Shown here: piece after piece, positions 2,647 to 61,745 of the stretch
Layout of the letters: each line of letters opens with the position of its first letter
Numbering within the stretch: the first letter of the stretch is position 1
From: Eledone cirrhosa
Lineage: Eukaryota
Direction: 5' to 3'
NCBI GenBank assembly: GCA_964016885.1
Contig: OZ024766.1
Span: 15,500,001-15,564,000 of the forward strand
Length of the DNA stretch: 64,000 nt
The notes under the pieces: generated by a model
What the model saw: only the letters and a program-made list of their open reading frames with translations
The model's database searches: none
What the model was told of the DNA's origin: nothing
Made by a program: the position numbers and the translations under genes

Positions 2647-3047
2647 ATAGACTTCAAGTAAATCTTTGTCAACTTATCAATAGATATGACAGTGTAAGAC
2701 TGATGTCGGCGAGAGAAAATTGTGTATATATATATAATTGTTACACAAGATGTAATTAGATTAATTAAAGTTATAATGAAGACAGCAGGTACGCGGTATC
2801 GTTATGAATGTTTCAACTGTCGTACCGGTGTCATACGTTAAAAGTCCCTGATATAATTTAATACCTTCAGACACAATTCCAATCGTATTTAATTGATTGT
2901 AGATCAGAAAATATCACTCAATATTAACATATCAATTATATATCAATAAGAAAACCTCTACGCACTCTCTCTAACTGCTAGAAATAGCAGTGATATTATC
3001 CATTAGAACTTACATCTATCTATATACACTCATAACATATATTTCAG

Positions 3048-3659
3048 CAGTGTCATGGTATTAGCTGTCAGAAGTGAAAGTAGAAGGTGACGTCATTCGT
3101 CAACCTTCTCAATCCTTTATTTCCGTATCACTATTCCCTTTATTTATGTTTAGGATTTTCTAAGAGATACGTTTACGATGAGATACACTTATTAAAAAAT
3201 ATATGGGGACCAAATAACCCCGTAATTTGAGAGAGAAACGATAATATACAATCTTATTTAACATGTGTATTAAAAACTACACTAGCTGTTACAATTGTAA
3301 TTAACGTGTAAGAATTTAAATGAAAATATAGGTGGCCCTTAAAAGGGCTGGTGTTGAACTTAAATTTGTTTTCTAATTTGATAACCATGACTTGTTTCAA
3401 CACCGGCCCTTTTAAGGGCCACCTATATTTTCATTTAAGTTCTTACACGTTAATTACAATTGTAACAGCTAGTGTAGTTTTTAATGCACATGTTAAATAA
3501 GATTGCATATTATCGTTTCTCTCGAAAATTACGGGGTTATTTGGTCCCCATAAATAAAATCATAAACGTAAATAAACGGAATAGAGATATGGAAATAAAG
3601 GATTGAGAAGGTTGACGACTGATGTCACCTTCTTTCTGACAGCTAATACCACGACAGTG
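3048..3659. mobile_element. Fold-back element with long imperfect inverted arms
   Basis: 3048-3359 is largely the reverse complement of 3395-3659; absent at the paralogous site near 14335; interrupted copy at 36572-41595. Confidence 0.8.
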
Positions 3660-4006
3660 CCCTTTATTTCGATATCTTACATTAAAATGTTGACTGAGGG
3701 TGTGGCAACTGTTTCTTGTTTGAGGTTGTTCCAGTGGTTGGAAGGTATATTAAATAATAAAGACAGTCATGATAACAATATATTTTATATCACATGTAAC
3801 AGTGGAATCTGATGATTGAAAAATATCACATCAACATTTCAGTTGGGAAGTGTTTTTTCTATATATAAAAGTGGAGGAAGAAATATATTTTTCTAATGTT
3901 ATATATATTTTCACTTGTATATAATTACTGGGTCGTTGTAGGGTTCACATAATTATATTATTTACATACATTAATATAGACATTAAGTAAATCTTTGTCA
4001 ACTTAC

Positions 4007-8150: not shown

Positions 8151-8797
8151 GTACATATACACACATACATACACAAATAAATCAAACACAGATATGCACA
8201 TACGTATATACAAACATAGATACAACATATACATGGACACAAATTTCTACACACATACATTCACATATATATAACATGTGTAAATTCTGAACAATACAGT
8301 TTTGTCGGCAAAACTCTTGGTTACAACTTCTACAAATAAAATTAAAGGAGAAGAATTTCTTAGTAAAACAGTTTTATTCAAAATATTAACAACATTGGTG
8401 GCACTATTTTGGGTTAGTGACATGGTTTTCATCTTGTCTAATTGTGTTGCATTAAGTAATCTTTAGAAGAGAACAATTTATCACAGACATCACAGTGATA
8501 TGGTTCCTCTCCTGTAGATGTTAGTGTCTAATGAAGTCACAGAATTTAGAGAAGCATTTACCACATACATCATAGTGATATGGTTCCTCTCCTGTAGATG
8601 TTAGTGTCTAGTGAAGTCACAACATTTAGAGAAAGATTTACCAAATATATCAAAGTGATATGGCTTCCCAGCTTTATGTATATGTTTGTGTGTAACATTC
8701 AAAGAGAATGGTTTCTCTCAGATGTCACAATGATATGTATTTGTATTCTCATTAATTCACAAATTTGAGGGAATGATTTATTTCTGATGTCAATGCA

Positions 8798-10653
<1,856 letters not shown>

Positions 10654-25573: not shown

Positions 25574-26008
25574 GAGATGATATTAATAAATGGAATCTAT
25601 ATTTATAAAAACATATTTATTCTATTATACATATTTCAAGGGTACCAAACCTTTTGTACGCTCTATCAGATAAAATAGAAAGTTTGTTTTATAAATAGTG
25701 ACATATCCAGGAATGATACCTTAACGGTTCAAGTTTCTCCTGGATAGTGAAAGGAAAGAGAGAAAAAGGGAAGAAAGGAAAAACAAATATTTCAAATTAT
25801 TTTGATGAATATGCAGATGATATTTTACCACAAATATTACAGTGATATGGCTTTTCTCCAGTATATATATATGTTTCTATGTAGTTAATGTAGCAATGAA
25901 GGAGAATAATTTCACCCCAACATCACAGTGGTATGTCTTCTCACTCATATAAATGTATTTGTGTTTAATTAATTCACCATTTTGAAATAATGAGATATGA
26001 CTTTGTTA

Positions 26009-26347
<339 letters not shown>

Positions 26348-27334
26348 CTAGTCTCCTGTATGGTTACGTTTGTGACTAGTTAAGTTACTACTTACAGAGA
26401 ATGATTTACCACAGATATCACAGTGATATGGCTTGTCTCCTGTATGGGTACGTTTGTGGCTAGTTAAGTTACTACTTACAGAGAATGATTTACCACAGAT
26501 AACACAGTGGTATGGCTTGTCTCCTGTATGGGTACGTTTGTGGCTAGTTAAGGTACTGCTTACAGAGAATGATTTACCACAGATATCACAGGGATATGGC
26601 TTGTCTCCTGTATGTACACGTTTGTGACCAGTTAAGTGACTACTTCGAGAGAATGATTTACCACAGATATCACAGTGATATGGCTTGTCTCCTGTATGTA
26701 TAAGGTTATGTGTAGTTAAGTTACTACTTGCAGAGAATGATTTACCACAGATATCACAGTGGTATGGCTTGTCTCCTGTATGGGTACGTTTGTGTCTAGT
26801 TAAGGTACTATTATCAGAGAATGATTTACCACAGATATCACAGTGATATGGCTTGTCTCCTGTATGTATAAGGTTATGTGTAGTTAAGTTACTACTTGCA
26901 GAGAATGATTTACCACAGATATCACAGTGGTATGGCTTGTCTCCTGTATGTGTACGTATGTGTCTAGTTAAGTTACTACTTAGAGAGAATGATTTACCAC
27001 AGATATCACAGTGATATGGCTTCTCTCCTGTATGTATATGTTTGTGGCTAGTTAAGTGATTACTTTCAGAGAATGATATACCACAGATATCACAGTGGTA
27101 TGGCTTGTCTCCTGTATGTGTATGTTTGTGACTAGTTAAGGTGTTACTATCAGAGAATGATTTACCACAGATATCACAGTGATATGGCTTGTCTCCTGTA
27201 TGTATATGTTTGTGGCTGGTTAAGGTAGTACTTACTGAGAATGATTTACCACAGATATCACAGTGATATGGTTTCTCTTCTCTAACCTTCGTCATCTCAC
27301 CAGGAATACTAAACACTTTAGATTGTGTTCCCAT
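26348..27334 (-). CDS. C2H2 zinc-finger protein, 11 tandem fingers, no effector domain seen
   Basis: 328-aa ORF of 28-aa repeats; exon acceptor tttcag at 27707; four more in-frame fingers follow the TAG, to TAA at 26006-26008. Confidence 0.85.
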
Positions 27335-28048
27335 TTAATCTTCTCAGTCAATTTATTTGGCATAAATATATTTTCTTCAACAGAATATACAAATGTTTTA
27401 CTTGTAATATTTCATATTCCTAAAAATATTTCTTCTTCTATATTTCCCTCAACTGTGATTTCAGTTAATATCTGAAGATAATATAAACTTATGTTTTATC
27501 CAAGTTTAGTTAAAATACAAAACCATCTCATAGTGATGAAAATAAACTCAGTTCGGAGGAAATATTTCACAGTAATTGAACTATAGATTTATATAAACAG
27601 TGTTATATAAGTTCTGTTTAAAATGTTTTAGTCTTCAAATGATGATAAATATAGGTGATGTATCCAAGATTGAAAATAATAATTTATCCCAATGTCATCT
27701 GGTATTCTGAAATGAAAAAGAAACAGTATGAGATAATAGAGAATACTTAAGAAACAGAGATAGATTTAACAGTGGAAATTTTATATTTCTATATTGGTAA
27801 ACTATAGATATCAACTTTCCTATCCGGAGCAATTCTCTCCAATGTAAGCTGGTATTCAAGCAAGCTCTGTAAATTATATCCTTCTATCTCTAGAGAGGTC
27901 TGCTCTATGGCAGTTTAGCAAAAAATTCATTCTGATGGGACTTTCTAACGTAGCTATCATCTCCTCTCCTGGTGACATGTCAACACCGGTTTAACATATA
28001 CATATATAAATATATATTATCACACACATATACACATATATATATACA

Positions 28049-41225: not shown

Positions 41226-41941
41226 GTATATAATTAACGTGTAAGAACTTAAATGAAAATATAGGTGGCCCTTAAAAGGGCATGTGTTGAACTTAAATTT
41301 GTTTTCTAATTTGATAACCATGACTTGTTTCAACACCGGCCCTTTTAAGGGCCACCTATATTTTCATCTAAGTTCTTACACATTAATTACAATTGTAACA
41401 GCTAGTGTAGTTTTTAATGCACATGTTAAATAAGATTGTATATTATCGTTTCGCTCGAAAATTACGGGGTTATTTGGTCCCCATAAATAAAATCATAAAC
41501 GTAAATAAACGGAATAGTGATACGGAAATAAAGGATTGAGAAGGTTGACGACTGACGTCACCTTCTTTCTGACAGCTAATACCACGACAGTGCCCTTTAT
41601 TTCGATATCTTACATTAAAATGTTGACTGAGGGTGTGACAACTGTTTCTTGTTTGAGGTTGTTCCAGTGGTTGAAATATAGACGGAGGTATATTAAATAA
41701 TAAAGACAGTCATGATAACAATATATTTTATATCACATGTAACAGTGAAATCTGATGATTGAAAAATATCACATCAACATTTCAGTTTGGAAGTGTTTTT
41801 TCTATATATAAAAGTGGAGGAAGAAATATATTTTTCTAATGTTGTTATATATATTTTCACTTGTATATAATTACTGGGTTCACATAATTATATTATTTAC
41901 ACACATTAATATAGACATTAAGTAAATCTTTGTCAACTTAC

Positions 41942-44362: not shown

Positions 44363-44448
44363 TGCCAGTATGGATTGAATGTGTGTCACTGATGAAAGAT
44401 TAACAAATCTTGAAACAACACTGTCTGGCATCCATGAGTGGACTGGCA
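44363..44448 (+). ncRNA. Extended type I hammerhead ribozyme, GUC cleavage site
   Basis: GTGTCA-CTGATGA-AAGAT-taacaa-ATCTT-GAAA-CA-acac-TG-TC-TGGCAT; stem I extends through ATGGA/TCCAT and TGCCAGT/ACTGGCA. Confidence 0.8.
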
Positions 44449-45281
44449 ACTTTGTTATATATTATTAGAAGATTATCGAGACAAATAAATTGCTTTGTTA
44501 CGAAAAAATAATTTTCTTTGATAGCAAGTCTACTAAAATGACATGTTTTCATCTGCACCCCTATAAGGCGTAAGATAGAAATCTGATTTGATTTTATTGC
44601 ATCTCTCCCTCTCTCTTTCTTGCTGACTCTCTCTCCCACTTCTACTCAATGAATTCCTATACAAGGTTCTCTTATTCCATTGTTTACTTTCAACTACTCC
44701 CAGTATGTCAGTGGCCAGAAGTAAATAAAAGTTTGAGAAACTTGTTGAAACTATAAAACGAATGAAATGGTAAAAATGCATTACATAATGGAGTTGTGAA
44801 ACAAAAACTATATTTTAAACGACACTTAAAACATTTTAAACATCAAAATATTAAAACTTCATAAATATATTTAATACTCATGAGTATTTCAAAACCATAC
44901 AATCTAAACATAATGTGTTGATTAGCTACCTCAGCTTATAAACGGGTTTTCGATTTTTGCCCATTTCTCAGGCATAAAATAGGAGTTTAGATTATATTTA
45001 GATCAGTTGATATTTGAGTATATATGGTAATGTCTCTGTTATGTCTAATTTAGGGAAAAGAGAAAAAAAATAGATAGGATAACAAAATATCAAATTCTGG
45101 ATATCACTATATATGATTACCACATTGCTCTTGATTCAGCAACCCTAGGAAAAAGATGTACCATTATATTAATGACTTTCTGTTTCTATTTCAAATGACA
45201 TAAACTCATTAAGCTCGAAATTATACACACACACACACACACAGACAAAATAAAATAAAATATGGTTAAAAAAGTTCCATA

Positions 45282-45351
45282 TACTTTATTATGCGCATTT
45301 CGAAAACAACATCATCCTGCGACAAAAATTGTGTTCTCATCAGATAAAATA
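45282..45351 (-). ncRNA. Type I hammerhead motif, same family as 60216 and 60357
   Basis: TATTTTAT-CTGATGA-G..stem II..C-GAAA-TGCGCA-TA-ATAAAGTA. Confidence 0.72.
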
Positions 45352-45509
45352 AGGTAACATGGTATGAGGCCTAAACACACTTGTCAACAGGAAAGTGTCA
45401 AGTCTACATATGACAGAAATATAAGAGTAAGAAAAAGATAGGAAAATAGAAGGAAAGAAGGAGAAAAAGGAAAAAGAAAGACAGGAGAGGAAAAAAAGAG
45501 GAAAACGAA

Positions 45510-45551
<42 letters not shown>

Positions 45552-46484
45552 GAGAGAAAGAGAGAGTGAGAGAGACTTTTGATCAGGAATGCTGTCAAAA
45601 TGAAACAAGCTGTAAATAACGGTTAAACAGTAAATTGATGAGGTGTATGTGCGATAAAATAAAGGGGTCGATAAAATAAAGTACCAGTAATGCACTGGTT
45701 AATTGCTGGCCTTGTGCCAAAACGTAGAAACAATTATAGATGGTATTCAAATATTAGAGGTCTAAAATATAGAAACTGGGTATATTATTTTATATTGGGT
45801 TTAAATACTAAAAATTGGATTAAGAAGTGTAAAAATGTATTAATAAAATAAAATTTAAAAAAATAAAATTAAATTAAAATAAGTATAAAAAAGATTTTTT
45901 TATAAAATAACATTAAATTAAAAAATAAAAATAGTCTATCTATGTCAAAACTAAAAATTTCTATAAAAATCTATATATGTGGGGTATTTAATTATTATTT
46001 TATATCAACAAGTAAAGGAAATTGCTAGAATGATTTATAAAGGGAGAAAGACATATGACGTCATCGAATGTTTGAACGAAAATCTAAGGCTATCGAAAAA
46101 AGGTGAAAGGCTTAAAATATGCTGAGAAACTGAATTAATACATTGTAGAATATATTGAAATATGTGTAAACAAAATATGTGTAAAAAATTAACCGTTATT
46201 CGTGGAATATGTTATAGGACATTAGCTATATACTTTGTGAAAGTGTATATATATATATATTGTGAATATATATATATATATATATATAAATGAAAAGTAT
46301 AGAAATTATTGTAGCAAGAAGCCAACAGTATTCCAAAATATATAAGTGACTATAATGTCAAAATGGAAAAATAGTTAACGTAAGATGTGGGAAAATAATT
46401 CAAACTCAATGCATATATATATATATTATATATATATGCATATATATATATATTATATATATATGCATATATATATATTATATA

Positions 46485-48500: not shown

Positions 48501-50690
<2,190 letters not shown>

Positions 50691-50788
50691 ATACTTTGGG
50701 AGGGTCATGTTGCCAATAAGAAACACACGCACCAGTTGCTTTCACTTCAATTTATTATATATTTATAAATTTATAAATTTACAAACTT

Positions 50789-51135
50789 CATGTATAGATA
50801 AGAAATGTATAACCTGTAAAATAAGCCTCCATATTAACTGTAAAACTAGAAATGTAGTGTATAGCATAAGATGTACTGAAGGACAATGTAGAAACAAAAA
50901 TATAGTGTACATAGGTGAGACAGCTCATAGTATAGGGGAACGAATAAATGAACACTGGCGAGACCTCCAAGATAATAAAGAATCATCTGTGCTCTACCAA
51001 CATGCTAAGATAGAACACAGGGGTAGATTAGAGAACATAGAAATAAAAATAGAATCCACACACAGAAAAGACGCAATGTTTAGGCAAATTACAGAGGCAG
51101 TAAGCATAAAAGAATTAAAACCCAAAATTAAATAG
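50789..51135 (+). pseudogene. PLE GIY-YIG endonuclease fragment
   Basis: CITC...NCKTRNVVYSIRC...YIGET...ERINEH...LYQH...RQITEAVSIKELKPKI. Confidence 0.88.
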
Positions 51136-51482
51136 AAAATATGAGTGGAACAGCAACATCACAACTTACAATTAAGGACAAAATGAAAACACACACAAGA
51201 CAAAATGAAAACACACACACACATAGAACAAACAACTTACAATTAAGGACAAAATGAAAATACACACAGGACAAAATGAAAACACACACACGCATAGAAC
51301 AAACAACCAACCAACAATAAATAAATAAATAAATAAACAAATAGATAAATGAACACAAACACACACAGACACCCGGATGTGGCGCATGCGCAAACTGAGC
51401 ACACAACAGACACACACACACAGAAACAAAATGGCGTAGGATAGAAGAAAGGAAAGGCAAAGAAACAAAGAAAGGAATCCCC

Positions 51483-51527
51483 AGTCACTGAAGAGGTCAC
51501 AGAGTGTGTGACGAAAGGACTATGATT
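51483..51527 (+). ncRNA. Minimal type I hammerhead motif
   Basis: AGTCA-CTGAAGA-g-GTCACA-gagtg-TGTGAC-GAAA-GGAC-TA-TGATT. Confidence 0.7.
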
Positions 51528-51939
51528 ATATATAAACAACTATCTGGTTGTGGAACCAACCAACCAACCAGAAATTTATAAGTTTGTAAATTTATAAATT
51601 TATAAATATATAATAAATTGAAGTGAAAGCAACTGGTGCGTGTGTCTCTTATTGGCAACATGACCCTCCCAAAGTATAACAATATCGGTTTCAACACACG
51701 ATTTCAGATAAAGAATCTTGCTAAACAAATTCAGAAACGAAATATATATATATGCATATATATATATGCATATATATTTATATATGCATATATATATATA
51801 TATATATATATGCATATATATTTATATATGCATATATATATATATATATGTATATATATATGCATATATATGCATATATATGCATATATATATATATGCA
51901 TATATATATATATGCATATATATATATATATGCATATAT

Positions 51940-54900
51940 ATCATCATCATCATCATCATCATCAACGTTTAACGTCCGTGTTCCACGCTTGCATGGGTTT
52001 GGACGGGGGTAGTCCCACTTGAGGCAAGAGTGATTGTCTTGCTCGCATAGGACTGTCTGGCAGGTTTTCTACAGTTGGATGCCCTTCCTAACACCAACCA
52101 CATTTACAGTGTGGGTCTGGGAGGTTTTTACCGTGTTGCCTACACGGCCACATTACAGCGTGGACTGTGTGTTTTTTTGTCGTGACACCTACACGATCTC
52201 ATTTGTTTCGGCCTCGATGGCGCGGCACCAACATAACTTTACATAGAACGGGGTGGTGTGGATGGGGTGGGGGTGGGGGTGGTGGGACGGGGTGTATTTT
52301 GTTAGAGATGCCTACTGGCTGGAGTAGGTTTTACTATATATTTAGGTAAGGCGGGTCTTCTCTGTTACTGAGTACCGCCAAAGGTCTCGGTCCAGTGACA
52401 TTGTCTTGGAGAGGTGTAAGTGTGTGATGTCGGAGTTTATCAGCTCGTCCCAGGTTTTTCTAGGTCTGCCTATTCCGTGACTACCGTCTATCTTTATTGC
52501 CCTGCACTTTGTTATACAGCTATCGACTTTCATGCGCATCACGTGTCCATACCAACGTAGCCTTCTCTCGAGTAAACAACATCTGATCCCTCTTATCTCT
52601 AATTTTTTCCTTAGTTCGTTTATGCTTTGCCGTTCACGTATATTACTGTTACACATCCAGCGGAGCATGCAAGCTTCGTTCCTCTCTAGTCTGCGTATAT
52701 CCTCTGCACACAATGCCCAGGTCTCACTGCCATGCAGCATTGCTGTTCGTATGCAGACATCGTACAACCTGCCTTTCATTTTTAGTGAGAACCCTTTAGC
52801 AGCTAATAGTGGTATAAGCTCTCTGAACTTTTTCCAACCAGTTCTGACTCTAGCTACAGTACTTTCAGAGCACCCTCCCCCACTGCTGATTTTATCGCCC
52901 AGGTAACGGAAGCTGTCCACTATTTCTATAGAACCCTCTGCGCAATTGAAAGAGCTAGTAGTTTGTGGGCACTTGCTGCTACTTATTGCACCAGAGCACC
53001 GGCCACATGTAAAATCTATGTTCTTAGTTAGCTTACCTGTGATCCCACTACATCTTTTATGCACCCATACTTTGCATTTAAGACATAAAATGGAGTTTCT
53101 ACCTACGCCTTTCCTACACACCGAGCACGACCATTTCCCAGAAGGGACCGCCGCCTTGTTTTCTTTCCTACAAACTAGTACTTTGGTCTTAGCCAGGTTA
53201 ATTTTAAGTCCTTTTGACTCTAGGCCGTGCTTCCATGTTTGGAATTTCTTCTCTAGCTCGGCCATTGATTCCGCTATGAGTGTCAGGTCGTCTGCGTATA
53301 GGAGTTCCCATGGGCAGCCTGTCTTGAACTCCTCTGTTATAGCCTGAAGGGCAATAATAAATAGTAGTGGGCTGAGAACAGAGCCCTGATGGACGCCAAC
53401 TTTTACGCTAAACTCTTCACTATATTCGTTGTTAATTCTAACCTTGCTGACTGTTTCTTTATACATGGCTTGTATAGCCCTCACAAGCCATTCGTCAACG
53501 CCTAGTTTTCTAAGAGCCCACCAGATAATGGAGCGGGGGACTCTGTCGAAGGCTTTCTCCAAGTCGACAAAAGCTAAGTAGAGGGGTTTACCTTTAGCTA
53601 GGTACTTGTCCTGTAGTTGTCGTACTATGAAAAGAGCGTCTGTGGTACTTTTGCCTGACACAAACCCGAACTGCATTTCATCTAGGTCAATTCTCTCTCT
53701 GATTAGTTGCGCTATTACTTTTTCCGTGACCTTCATGACCTGGTCGATTAATTTAATGCCTCTATAGTTACTCCTATCTAGGGCGTCTCCTTTACCCTTA
53801 TAACAGTTAACGATGATGCTGCTATGCCAGTCCTTCGGAACAACCCCATTCTGTACGACTTGGTTAACTATGCGGGTGACCATGGTGTGTCCCACCGTGC
53901 CAGATGCCTTCAGCATCTCAGCAACTATTTCCGAAGGCCCAGCCGCCTTACCCGTCTTCATATCCTTGATTGCCTTACTTATTATACTCCCCTCGACTAA
54001 CACTGCTGGTCCCTCTATTGGGTCGATATGGGGGAGACTGCCTTTCTCCCAATTATTCTCCTCATTTAGTAGCCTTTCATAGTGACACTTCCAAGCTACC
54101 TTCTTATCAGCGTCGCTGATGGCAAGTGTGCCATCGTCGTTTAGTACCCACTTCTCCCCGACAATATCACGGTTTTCCTTGACGCATTGCCTAGCAATCC
54201 TGAACACCTCACGTTTTTGGTCATCGCGTTGTAGAACATGCTTGAACTTTCTTTCCTCAGCTTCCCTTCTTGCTAAGTACACTTGTCTCCTAGCTTCCCT
54301 CCTGGCCACTTGATAGTCCTCTCTACTTCCCCCATCCCGCCATACTTTCCAAGCCTGCTTTTTGGCCTTAATTGACCCCTGCACCTTACTGTTCCACCAC
54401 CATGTTACTCTCCTCCTGCCTACAGGCCTGCTCCAGCCACAGACTTCGTCTGTCGCCAACAGCAGGTTTGCTTTCAGAAATTCCCACTCTCCCTCTATAT
54501 TGTCCGACTCTAAATGTTCTTCCTTACTGTCGAAAGCATCAAGTAATATGCTTTGAAATTTATTCCTGGCTGTGGGGTCCTTTAGCTTCCATATTTTCCT
54601 CCTGAGGATAGTCCTCTTCTGTTGTCGAGTACGTCTCGTCCTGACTATGAGGTCGCTAATTATCAGTCTATGTTGGGAGGTGCATTCTTCATGGGGGAGG
54701 GATTTAGTGTTTACAACAGACACTCTGTCACGTCTTCTGGTAAGGATATAATCTACCTGGCTTGTGTGTTCCCCGGATCTATAGGTGATCAGGTGATTGT
54801 CACGTTTTTTGAAGTTAGTGTTACAGATAGTTAGGTTATTTGCATCACAGAATTCCAGGATTCTGGAGCCTTCCTCATTTCTAGTACCAAACCCATAGCC

Positions 54901-55768
54901 TCCATGGATTTCGTCGTAGCCGTCACAATGTTGTCCAACGTGACCATTTAGGTCGCCTGCGATAATTATATAGTCACTGTCGGATATTTGGGAGGTAGTT
55001 AGCATCAGTGTCTCATAGAATCTGTCTTTTATAGTGCCGGGCAGTCCGGATTGGGGTGCGTACGCAGATATTACTGTCACCGTAGTTCTATTGAGGACAA
55101 GTCGTATTTTAATTATTCTGTCGTTCACTCTATTTACGTCTATTATCTTATCTGCCCACTTTTCTGCTACCATGATTCCTACTCCACCCAGCCCATCGTC
55201 GTTTCCCACCCAGAAAAGCTTATAACATCGTTTTTTACCCTCAATGAACCTAGCAGACCCACCCCTCCACCTGGTCTCTTGAATACAACAAACATCGACC
55301 TCCTTACGTTCAAGCATTTCTACAACCTCGTTAGCGCGACCCTTTAGGGTGCCTACATTTATGGTACCAACTCTGAAGTTTTGGATTGCGTTTGGGGGTT
55401 GGGGGCGGTGGGGGGCGGGGGGCGATGGGGTTATGTTAGCCGTCCGCGGTCGAAACAATGAGGAGTGCTCGCATTCTCGTCCAAGAGGTGAATTTGTCTT
55501 TATCTTTGGCATTGTCGCTGAGCGTCCAGATTTTTCTCTCTCTCACCTCCACTCTCCAGGATTCCGCAGTCCATCCATCCATCATATATCGAAAGGCAAC
55601 CAGGCAAGCGATAGTATAGGCCTCTGGTTTCTGATTGGTCCGCGTAATAATACTGGTGATGCGTGGGGGCTCTGTTTTATGATTGGTCCACGTAATAGCA
55701 ATGGTGGTGCGTGTGGGTGTTGGGTAGCTAGCAAGAAGGTAATGATTGAATGGGGTCCTTGCATTTAA
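51940..55768 (-). mobile_element. Full-length RTE-clade LINE
   Basis: About 250-nt 5' UTR, single EN-RT ORF, 400-nt 3' UTR ending in (GAT)n. Confidence 0.95.
52342..55512 (-). CDS. RTE polyprotein: APE endonuclease, reverse transcriptase and Cys-rich finger
   Basis: Uninterrupted 1056 aa; TINVGTL, IQETRW, GDLNGHVG, VDLEKAFDRV, QGSVLSPLLF, YADD, FRYLG. Confidence 0.95.
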   Translation of the reverse strand: MPKIKTNSPLGRECEHSSLFRPRTANITPSPPAPHRPQPPNAIQNFRVGTINVGTLKGRANEVVEMLERKEVDVCCIQETRWRGGSARFIEGKKRCYKLFWVGNDDGLGGVGIMVAEKWADKIIDVNRVNDRIIKIRLVLNRTTVTVISAYAPQSGLPGTIKDRFYETLMLTTSQISDSDYIIIAGDLNGHVGQHCDGYDEIHGGYGFGTRNEEGSRILEFCDANNLTICNTNFKKRDNHLITYRSGEHTSQVDYILTRRRDRVSVVNTKSLPHEECTSQHRLIISDLIVRTRRTRQQKRTILRRKIWKLKDPTARNKFQSILLDAFDSKEEHLESDNIEGEWEFLKANLLLATDEVCGWSRPVGRRRVTWWWNSKVQGSIKAKKQAWKVWRDGGSREDYQVARREARRQVYLARREAEERKFKHVLQRDDQKREVFRIARQCVKENRDIVGEKWVLNDDGTLAISDADKKVAWKCHYERLLNEENNWEKGSLPHIDPIEGPAVLVEGSIISKAIKDMKTGKAAGPSEIVAEMLKASGTVGHTMVTRIVNQVVQNGVVPKDWHSSIIVNCYKGKGDALDRSNYRGIKLIDQVMKVTEKVIAQLIRERIDLDEMQFGFVSGKSTTDALFIVRQLQDKYLAKGKPLYLAFVDLEKAFDRVPRSIIWWALRKLGVDEWLVRAIQAMYKETVSKVRINNEYSEEFSVKVGVHQGSVLSPLLFIIALQAITEEFKTGCPWELLYADDLTLIAESMAELEKKFQTWKHGLESKGLKINLAKTKVLVCRKENKAAVPSGKWSCSVCRKGVGRNSILCLKCKVWVHKRCSGITGKLTKNIDFTCGRCSGAISSSKCPQTTSSFNCAEGSIEIVDSFRYLGDKISSGGGCSESTVARVRTGWKKFRELIPLLAAKGFSLKMKGRLYDVCIRTAMLHGSETWALCAEDIRRLERNEACMLRWMCNSNIRERQSINELRKKLEIRGIRCCLLERRLRWYGHVMRMKVDSCITKCRAIKIDGSHGIGRPRKTWDELINSDITHLHLSKTMSLDRDLWRYSVTEKTRLT

Positions 55769-58460: not shown

Positions 58461-58545
<85 letters not shown>

Positions 58546-58546
<1 letters not shown>

Positions 58547-58950
58547 TCAAATAATTGTTTCTACTTTTGGCACAAGGCCATCAAATACCCAGTGTCTTAC
58601 TGGTACTTTATTTTATCGACCCCGTAAGGATGAAAGGCAAAGTTGACCTCGGCGGGATTTGAACTCAGAATGGAAAGGGCCGTAACTCTATGCGTCAAAG
58701 CATGGCGTCCGACCCTCTACCGATACTGCCAATCCACATTTGAGTATATAATAGGGCGGTGGATTGGCAGTATTGGTAGAGGGTCGGACGCCATCCTTTG
58801 ACGCATAGAGTTACGGCCCTTGCCATTCTGAGTTCAAATCCTGCCGAGGTTAACTTTGCCTTTCATCCTTACAGGGTCGATAAAATAAAGTACCAGTAAT
58901 GTACTGGGTAATTGCTGGCCTTGTACCAAAAGTAGAAATAATTATTTGAG
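58546..58950. mobile_element. Head-to-head inverted pair of SINE B
   Basis: 58546-58737 (-) and 58755-58950 (+), separated by about 20 bp. Confidence 0.88.
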
Positions 58951-59075
58951 TATATAACACATCAAATATGTTTAGAATTTTGTGTTTCTCAATAAGGAAG
59001 CTCAATAGACTTTATCTAGAGCCATAACAACCATACACAAAGATATATGTATATACATAACAACCAAATACAAAG

Positions 59076-60102: not shown

Positions 60103-60110
<8 letters not shown>
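59221..60110. repeat. 170-bp direct repeats flanking about 550 bp of unique DNA
   Basis: 59221-59392 is similar to 59940-60110. Confidence 0.85.
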
Positions 60111-60183
<73 letters not shown>

Positions 60184-60215
60184 TAAGATCAAAAGATGGT
60201 TAAAAGAGTACCATG

Positions 60216-60286
60216 TATTTTATTATGCGCATTTCAAAAACAAATATCATCATGCGATAACATTTGTGTTTTCGTCAGATAAAATA
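60216..60286 (-). ncRNA. Type I hammerhead motif
   Basis: TATTTTAT-CTGACGA-16-bp stem II-GAAA-TGCGCA-TA-ATAAAATA. Confidence 0.75.
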
Positions 60287-60356
60287 GGGAGACATGATAT
60301 GAAGGTTAAAAAACACTTGTGAATAGTGCAGTTTTAAATCAACATATCATGTCTCC

Positions 60357-60429
60357 CTATTTTATCTGATGAAAACGCAAATGTTATCGCATGTTGATGT
60401 TTGTTTTTGAAATGCGCATAATAAAATAG
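60357..60429 (+). ncRNA. Type I hammerhead motif
   Basis: CTATTTTAT-CTGATGA-stem II-GAAA-TGCGCA-TA-ATAAAATAG; 9-bp stem I. Confidence 0.75.
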
Positions 60430-60551
60430 ATGGAACTCTTTTAACCATTGTTTGATCTTATATATTATTTATACTCCAGTCCTACAAACTGTAGAGTGCT
60501 ACTTATCCGATATCTGCATTGCTTTATTGTACTACAATAAAACTCACCTCC

Positions 60552-60597
<46 letters not shown>

Positions 60598-60635
60598 ATA
60601 TAGTATATATATATATATATAGAGAGAGAGAGAAG

Positions 60636-60694
<59 letters not shown>

Positions 60695-60784
60695 ACAACC
60701 AAATACAAAGATATATATATATATATGTATATAATATATAAAAATTAGAATTGGTGCTCTGAAATAGCTATATATATATGAATC

Positions 60785-61028
60785 TATATATAGTGTATTT
60801 TGCAATACACTGTATGCTTAATTAAAAGCATTTCGAAGACCTTATGCTATTGTTTTAGAGTAGTGACAGACTCACTTTAATTTCAGCAAACAAGGCCTTG
60901 TCAGCTTTATCTCCCCCTGTTTGCTGAAATTAAAGTAAGTGAGTCTGTCACTACTCTAAAACAATAGCATAAGGACTTCGAAATGTTTTTAATTAAGCAT
61001 ACAGTGTATTGCAAAATACACTATATAT
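60785..61028. repeat. Fold-back with arms of about 108 bp
   Basis: 60785-60892 is the reverse complement of 60918-61028 with a 4-bp indel. Confidence 0.88.
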
Positions 61029-61136
61029 ACATTTGTATATATATATAAATATATATATAGAGAGAGAGACATAACAACCAAATACAAAGATATATATATA
61101 TAATAGAAGAGAGAGAGACATAACAACCAAATACAG

Positions 61137-61209
<73 letters not shown>

Positions 61210-61415
61210 GAGAGAGACATAACAACCAAATACAAAGATATATATATAGAGAGAGAGAGAAAGATCCATATATCATATATCTTACACGATATTTGGCTCT
61301 TTCTCTCTCTATATATATAACCAAGTGAAAAGATATATGTATATAGCTTTCCACTTGGTTATATATATATTATAAGAACAGATTAAAGTTTAAGCAACGA
61401 ATCACTGCTTTCACC

Positions 61416-61745
61416 TCTGGAGAGGTTGTGGGGAGTATGTGTGTGTTTTTGTAGGATGTTAGTCATGGTAAGTTTTAACTGTGAGAGTTTATTCTTGAGA
61501 TCCTACAAAAACACACCCATACTCACCACAAGCTCTCCAGACCACAACTCACTACCCTAAGTTAACCTCAGATCTAAGAACCTTGTATACCTCTTATCGG
61601 ACAAGGGAAAATAGTTTTGTTTTATTACCAGAGAGGCCTACAACAACCGAGCCCACCAACATCTCAACTACGACAGTCTCTACTCGGACGTCACTGGAAT
61701 TACACCCACACTGATAGAGAACCAGATCAACACTGCCTCGACCAA
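61416..61745 (+). mobile_element. Penelope-like RT N-terminal remnant preceded by a 42-bp inverted repeat
   Basis: LRSKNLVYLLSDKG..ITREAYNNRAHQHLNYDSLY..TPTLIENQIN (DKG motif); IR 61416-61457 / 61500-61541. Confidence 0.6.

Follow-up and report, generated by a model that had tools for sequence, protein, structure and literature searches.

A palindrome with two hammerhead motifs in Eledone cirrhosa: a probable stub of a Hydra-clade Penelope-like element in a TA microsatellite, likely mirrored at insertion

Near one end of a 64,000-nt stretch of Eledone cirrhosa DNA (the window, at its full length) lies a palindrome that carries a hammerhead motif on each strand, and the question it raises is whether such a structure spreads as a unit or is made anew when an element inserts. 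An earlier note on the window described a palindromic cassette with structure-preserving variation, compared it with ambisense viroid-like RNAs, and named an inverted pLTR duplication during Penelope-type insertion as the simpler origin. Ambisense viroid-like circular RNAs have one ribozyme per polarity and a rod-like fold. In the palindrome studied here, unlike in those RNAs, both ribozymes go back to one sequence that was duplicated in inverted form, and the DNA copies give no sign of a circle or of unit replication. We regard it as very probable that the locus is a stub, the 3' end of a Hydra-clade Penelope-like element (PLE) in (TA)n, whose mirror image likely came from copying one RNA twice during that insertion. 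Taken by itself the locus is unremarkable, a short 3'-terminal piece of such an element in a TA microsatellite, and the family is a new member of the Hydra-type PLEs with an insertion type that is already known.

The features are collected in Table 1. Positions within the family are counted from 0 at 60553 of the window, negative values being upstream. The segments ~60172-60301 and ~60343-60464 are inverted copies with eight differences in 122 aligned positions, and the centre between them is single-copy because the other arm is shorter. The right end had earlier been placed at 60464, which is wrong: the tail goes on to ~60555, and all 30 related loci fetched with the whole palindrome as query lie in TA runs and have a tail of ~80-90 nt past 60464 (degraded in one). 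The locus (L001, on C27) is duplicated on another chromosome (L002, on C1) together with kilobases of flank at ~91% identity, microsatellites included; the two are a single insertion that was later duplicated, and L134 of the position-ordered set described below is a duplicate of the studied locus. Four of the eight arm differences lie outside the ribozyme and two are transitions at CpG; since the duplicate locus lacks one of these two, that one must be a late point mutation. A small bulged hairpin (60473-60499) starts exactly at the inner of the two reverse transcription starts proposed below, and a similar one follows the outer start in the parent (L163:2615-2640).

Table 1. Features of the studied locus and of the third hammerhead copy, in window coordinates (values with a minus sign are on the family scale)
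Feature	Position	Strand	Remarks
Tail-less truncated copy of sister Hydra family	45249..46243	-	ORF end, 3' UTR, hammerhead 45282-45351; blastn
(TA)n target microsatellite, left	60105..60183	.	inverted arm's outer end merges into it; from sequence
Tail-less arm, longer of the two	60172..60347	-	parent 3' end, ~-255 to ~-80
Type I hammerhead motif, CUGACGA core	60216..60286	-	predicted cut 60224/60223
Unpaired centre	60302..60342	-	ordinary parent sequence upstream of the hammerhead; runs into upstream sequence in long copies
5-nt microhomology at head-to-head junction	60343..60347	.	end of long arm = start of short arm
Tail-bearing arm	60343..60473	+	parent 3' end from ~-209; 90-92% identity to ends of intact coding copies L163-L165
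Type I hammerhead motif, CUGAUGA core	60358..60428	+	predicted cut 60420/60421
One-sided tail, ~80 nt	60474..60555	+	continues into ORF leader in tandem parents
(TA)n target microsatellite, right	60556..60620	.	from sequence

That each arm holds a full hammerhead motif was borne out by pattern scan and stem pairing. A loose hammerhead pattern gave four matches on both strands of the 64 kb, three of them the motif (60361-60425, + strand, CUGAUGA; 60219-60283, - strand, CUGACGA; 45285-45348, - strand, CUGAUGA with G-C closing stem II); the fourth, at 44384, was discarded as unrelated and wobble-paired. In all three, stem I is 8 bp long, stem II has 14 columns with a single C-U mismatch, the stretches CUGANGA and GAAA and an AUA cleavage triplet are present, and stem III is a self-complementary octamer. 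The type I features (conserved core, three stems, NUH site) are present, with stem III of only 2-3 bp in the monomer and A-U at 10.1/11.1. No hammerhead was among the 91 Rfam matches at E<=0.1, and single-arm folds barely beat shuffled sequences (z -1.1, -2.4 and +0.6); the hammerhead call is putative and draws on pattern, pairing and family conservation rather than on Rfam. For a single arm the active fold (-7.5 kcal/mol) is predicted not to be favoured over the minimum free energy fold (-12.6 kcal/mol), and the stem III octamer duplex is predicted at -10.5 kcal/mol. A predicted weak monomer with such a duplex fits the dimer-type metazoan PLE hammerheads in the available part of Cervera and de la Pena (2014, PMC4209133), and the motif in the source elements would probably cut as a dimer via the palindromic stem III, or with the aid of a protein. 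For the full-element transcript, folding predicts a rod (-190 kcal/mol) in which the motif would lie buried, in agreement with the rod-like RNA and sequestered ribozyme that the earlier note supposed.

The element behind the stub is seen in longer copies, where the centre is followed, going upstream, by a 3' UTR and then an ORF. Three fetched regions (L163-L165) carry 821-aa open frames, and 60343-60553 is 90-92% identical to their ends; two of them are flanked on both sides by the repeat, 3.85-3.9 kb apart, with the tail entering the ORF leader. Intact 821-aa frames number in the dozens among the best 150 scored matches. The single ORF encodes RT followed by a C-terminal GIY-YIG endonuclease (YRDD at 378, LIY..YFG at 699-716), with RWT at 58 (a variant of RWK), DKT at 144, CNCRIKNKC (the CxCx5C linker) at 680, CNLC (CxxC) at 780 and CLH (CxH) at 808, and by eye its CCHH is incomplete, the second C and the last H being missing. 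Pfam returned no match for the parent protein. A hammerhead in the pLTR and insertion in (TA)n, both traits of the Hydra clade, are present, and by its motifs and by-eye comparison the parent appears to be a Hydra-clade PLE. The Penelope-like fragment at 50686-51740 was considered as the parent and rejected, since its hammerhead and endonuclease type differ.

The Hydra clade in the available part of Craig et al. (2021, PMC8557442) shares with this family the single ORF with RT and C-terminal GIY-YIG, DKT, CxCx5C, CxxC, CxH and the incomplete CCHH, as well as a hammerhead near the 3' end, (TA)n targets, an inverted 5'-truncated copy and a one-sided tail. It differs in having RWK instead of RWT, a unit of <3 kb instead of ~3.85 kb and a tail of 30-40 nt instead of ~80 nt; compared with that clade, the studied hammerhead has a 14-column stem II closed by A-U. 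From the part of the record at hand, the Hydra-1_Obim protein resembles that of the parent in a comparison by eye, and it represents a separate family with a different hammerhead.

To see how the palindrome is distributed we turn to the species' own genome (G000, 3.0 Gb), in which exact patterns matched the tail 10,817 times and the studied junction 17 times; the exact count misses diverged copies of the junction, so at least 40 loci share it. With the whole palindrome as query, the best 40 of 2,047 candidates were all near full length at 91-100% identity. These matches, the very stable predicted rod and the inherited stem variants that preserve pairing would suit a 281-bp palindrome that propagates itself as a viroid- or retrozyme-like cassette, with an ambisense rod RNA and selection on both ribozymes. 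However, the whole-palindrome query favours junction-bearing copies, that is, the search itself selects for the junction, and the fixed cassette suggested by 40 of 40 scored copies near full length was dismissed as a query effect once junction-free searches had shown it to be one. Among loci from a query of arm plus tail (best 40 of 943 scored, 30 fetched), 11 of the 30 have a strong inverted arm, at spacings of 1, 87, 87, 96, 113, 120, 122, 143, 151, 714 and 961, one has a weak inverted arm, and 18 have none within 1.5 kb; the studied spacing was limited to the locus and its segmental duplicate, plus one more with a short insertion. No tandem repeat of the palindrome unit was seen in the 30 palindrome-query loci, and the direct repeats observed are the 3.85-kb coding units. 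Relative to the tail, the centre of these 30 loci runs one way in 23 and the opposite way in seven; a parvovirus-like flip-flop of the centre was rejected as an explanation, the simpler one being which arm is longer.

A sample not drawn by similarity to the junction, the first 100 tail matches along contig C1 in order of position, gives the proportions. TA runs follow 90 of the 100 tails, five tails run on into the ORF leader, and 46 have an adjacent inverted tail-less arm. The outer end of this arm is at -80 in 39 of the 46 and between -79 and -90 in all 46. Inner ends are spread widely except for a cluster between -251 and -260, which takes in 25 of the 100 tail arms and 30 of the 46 inverted ones. 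Among the 40 pairs that could be parsed cleanly (six of the 46 were badly parsed and omitted), the -255/-209 form occurs in three, namely the locus's own duplicate and two of mirror form, and in 19 both arms reach ~-255, leaving a small loop or none. The tail-less arm exceeds the other in length in 17 of the 40 and in 23 of the 30 junction-sharing loci; the arm-length ratio of 17:2 leaves out the six badly parsed pairs and copies with a tail arm of more than ~520 nt. Breakpoints vary among copies, the outcome that the earlier note had named as refuting its cassette reading, and exact matches to the junction are few (17) beside those to the tail (10,817). The palindrome is not a unit with fixed ends, and the origin that the earlier note held to be simpler, an inverted pLTR from Penelope-type insertion, is the one supported. 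Long inverted arms within TA runs would also be expected of a MITE of a TA-targeting DNA transposon with a captured hammerhead; the ends are asymmetric (one tail), the inner breakpoints are not constant and the sequence comes from the 3' end of an element that encodes RT, and we hold this origin to be the least credible of those considered.

Whether the mirror image is inherited or remade can be read from the arms. Over 31 two-armed copies, arms of one copy differ on average by 1.35 sites and arms of different copies by 6.07 (none of 2000 permutations gave a within-copy value so low). Of 20 private substitutions, four recur on the other arm, and a copy's own arm is the nearest or tied in only 21 of the 31. 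The arms of the studied copy, at 8/122, differ more than the family mean, which fits either age or two template molecules. A tree was built from 123 arm-plus-tail rows, 28 of them junction copies, leaving out the duplicates L002, L108-110 and L114 as well as one junction locus and 29 position-ordered loci with short or gapped arms. The 28 junction copies split 20 and 8 across a 100/95 branch (several subfamilies), one of them has the very sequence of a copy without the junction, and no letter is found only in junction copies. The junction label changes 18 times on the tree, at least three of the changes being forced by strong branches, against 24.7 in shuffles; the clustering beyond shuffles is as expected for copies chosen by similarity to one query. 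Since junction copies occur in several subfamilies and the arms are matched copy by copy, the mirror image would be remade at insertion. Arms re-matched per copy, no junction clade and no junction-only letter also speak against the cassette, which does not spread as a lineage and to which we give very little credence.

The variation in the hammerhead points the same way. The differences listed by the earlier note (U7/C7, A-U/G-U swaps, A-U vs G-C closing stem II) are present as claimed; its view of them as structure-preserving holds for inherited variants, which come from the coding parent, but not for private changes, which are indifferent to structure. In 71 tail arms the common variants (in three or more copies) comprise six in stems, three in loop II, six in flanks and none in the core, and all six in stems retain a pair through one-sided change, whereas rare or private variants break 13 stem pairs, keep seven and change four core positions, which tells against selection on the ribozymes of a cassette. 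Common variants keep pairing and rare ones break it more often than not, so selection would act on source elements, not on stubs. Only one change alters both sides of a pair, A-U being replaced by G-C at the stem II base; it distinguishes two families, and the second of these accounts for the third hammerhead. The earlier note had taken the copy at 45282-45351 as solo; a hammerhead is there, but it ends a ~1-kb tail-less stub of a sister family. The stub matches L065, L073, L080, L087 and L089 at 79-98% (blastn), and 156 of 276 aa of the sister endonuclease region are identical to the parent's. Breakpoints vary in the sister family as well, and three of 13 listed arm copies, in a sample not ordered by position, end at the word of the -255 hotspot.

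How the mirror image would arise is suggested by what is observed: the stub matches the ends of coding copies, the outer ends in the family are fixed at two points separated by 80 nt while the inner ends vary, the two arms of a copy match each other, the arms are joined at a microhomology, and the targets are TA runs. We propose that the RT/GIY-YIG protein would nick both (TA)n strands and that two cDNAs would be primed, one at an outer start (with the tail) and one at an inner start (without it). Both would head for the 5' end of the RNA, whose likely position is -255, at a distance of 69 nt from the hammerhead core on its upstream side, and the two cDNA ends would then be joined head to head through microhomology. 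At the studied locus the tail-less cDNA would have reached -255 and met the other at -209; the junction recurs because the five letters at the -255 end are also present at -209. Both cDNAs cross the cut site, so the template would have been uncut, and the hammerheads would be passengers of the pLTR that decay neutrally in stubs like this one. There is precedent in the available part of Frangieh et al. (2024, PMC11167929) on the Poseidon element PAc of Anolis, in which both target strands are nicked and extended, two internal RT starts delimit the tail and the main RNA template is uncut; PAc differs in belonging to another clade and in having, in that part, no RNA-seq reads ending at the cut site, where in the present family genomic joins are in slight excess. 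According to the available parts of PMC8557442 and PMC3846280, PLE insertions typically have an inverted 5' copy and a tail on one side.

Another way to make a mirror image from the parent is snap-back, in which a single cDNA or antisense RNA self-primes on the -255/-209 imperfect hairpin and the tail is kept on either side after resolution. The centre does form an imperfect hairpin closed by the 5-nt microhomology, short templated insertions occur at the junctions of L006, L015, L020 and L027, the centre may point either way with respect to the tail (23 and 7 of the 30 loci), and self-priming has been proposed in the part of Arkhipova et al. (2013, PMC3846280) at hand. Against it stand the 19 of 40 pairs in which a loop is small or lacking at ~-255, and the inverted arm, which always ends near -80 without the tail ever being copied; nor can simple snap-back of a tail-primed cDNA yield a tail-less arm that is often the longer one (17 of 40 pairs). 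We think snap-back improbable here. The Adineta Penelope pLTRs of that paper, as far as its available part goes, share with this family the inverted pLTR with a short overlap, the optional tail, palindromic junctions, microhomology joins and an Inr-like sequence in the pLTR; they differ in that self-priming is invoked there, while the arm lengths here favour two cDNAs.

Copying of one RNA from two starts would also make the junctions informative about the ends of that RNA. Head-to-head joins at -255/-255 were found at 1,761 loci with varied filler, which suggests that the RNA starts there; read from genomic DNA junctions, this is a likely 5' end. An untemplated G from cap copying at -255 was considered and rejected: of 40 ends not belonging to perfect-overlap joins, 17 have a G before the start, but many of these can be templated by microhomology, and as a sign of cap copying the G is only a hint. 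Joins at the predicted cleavage site were found at 30 loci (~2% of the -255 class). The shortest form makes up 16 of the 30, and in no case does the gap hold a G or C taken from the sequence upstream. Equally broad control patterns ~15 and 58 nt upstream gave six and three joins, the 58-nt control having comparable AT microhomology. The excess is suggestive only, because the site is AT-rich, the controls are just two and flank polymorphism differs; read from genomic joins, it suggests occasional cleavage by the hammerhead in vivo. We are inclined, with little more than even confidence, to think that the stubs record the PLE cycle: one RT complex with two fixed starts and run-off either at the pLTR transcription start or, in ~2%, at an end made by the hammerhead.

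Metazoan PLE hammerheads and retrozymes, in the available parts of PMC4209133 and bioRxiv 10.64898/2026.07.22.740005, have the same type I motif with a long stem II and a short palindromic stem III suited to dimers. The non-LTR retrozymes described there differ in being non-coding direct tandem repeats with a hammerhead per unit, where the studied locus is an inverted stub of a coding element. A full-text literature search, with most subscription journals outside its reach, turned up no paper that deals with the family or with genomic joins at the cut site of a PLE hammerhead.

Several other repeats were noted in the window and in related loci. The copy at 50686-51740 is a 5'-truncated Penelope-like element of another clade with a GIY-YIG frame, a CxxxxCxxC linker, a hammerhead near 51487, an inverted arm and a one-sided tail; by its motif we take it to be Neptune-like. 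Its family is very abundant (31,153 candidates), with open frames to ~1,240 aa among the best 150 scored. A third hammerhead family with an arm-plus-tail layout, different stems II and III and a related tail was seen at L009:1820-2580 and L030:440-1270. More hairpin insertions lie within TA runs at 58540-58956, 60769-61045, 61243-61319 and 61416-61541, none of which has a hammerhead core by pattern; the first of them is presumably two head-to-head copies of a tRNA-derived SINE. Another hairpin repeat family, at 3047-3660 and 41231-41553, matches the histone 3' stem-loop on the + strand (40.5 and 39.5 bits, gathering 34) and has no hammerhead core by pattern in these two copies; the best 40 of 826 candidates are mostly on C18, C27, C28 and small contigs. 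Two arrays of 84-bp C2H2 zinc-finger repeats lie on the minus strand at 8700-10170 and 25900-27400, and an intact 1,066-aa LINE frame with endonuclease and RT, which we assume from its motifs to be RTE-like, is found at 52342-55542 (- strand).

If the stubs do record the PLE cycle, they would speak for a PLE hammerhead active in living cells, with a 5'-OH product still open to reverse transcription and insertion. From the junctions of the family one can predict where the RNA would start (-255), where RT would start (two sites, 0 and -80) and where cleavage would leave an end (-131). The family is young, has more than 10,000 ends, and offers a test bed for two questions left open in the available part of PMC8557442, the origin of the inverted and tandem structures of PLEs and the role of the PLE hammerhead. 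For the host, thousands of such hairpins could be a supply of double-stranded RNA.
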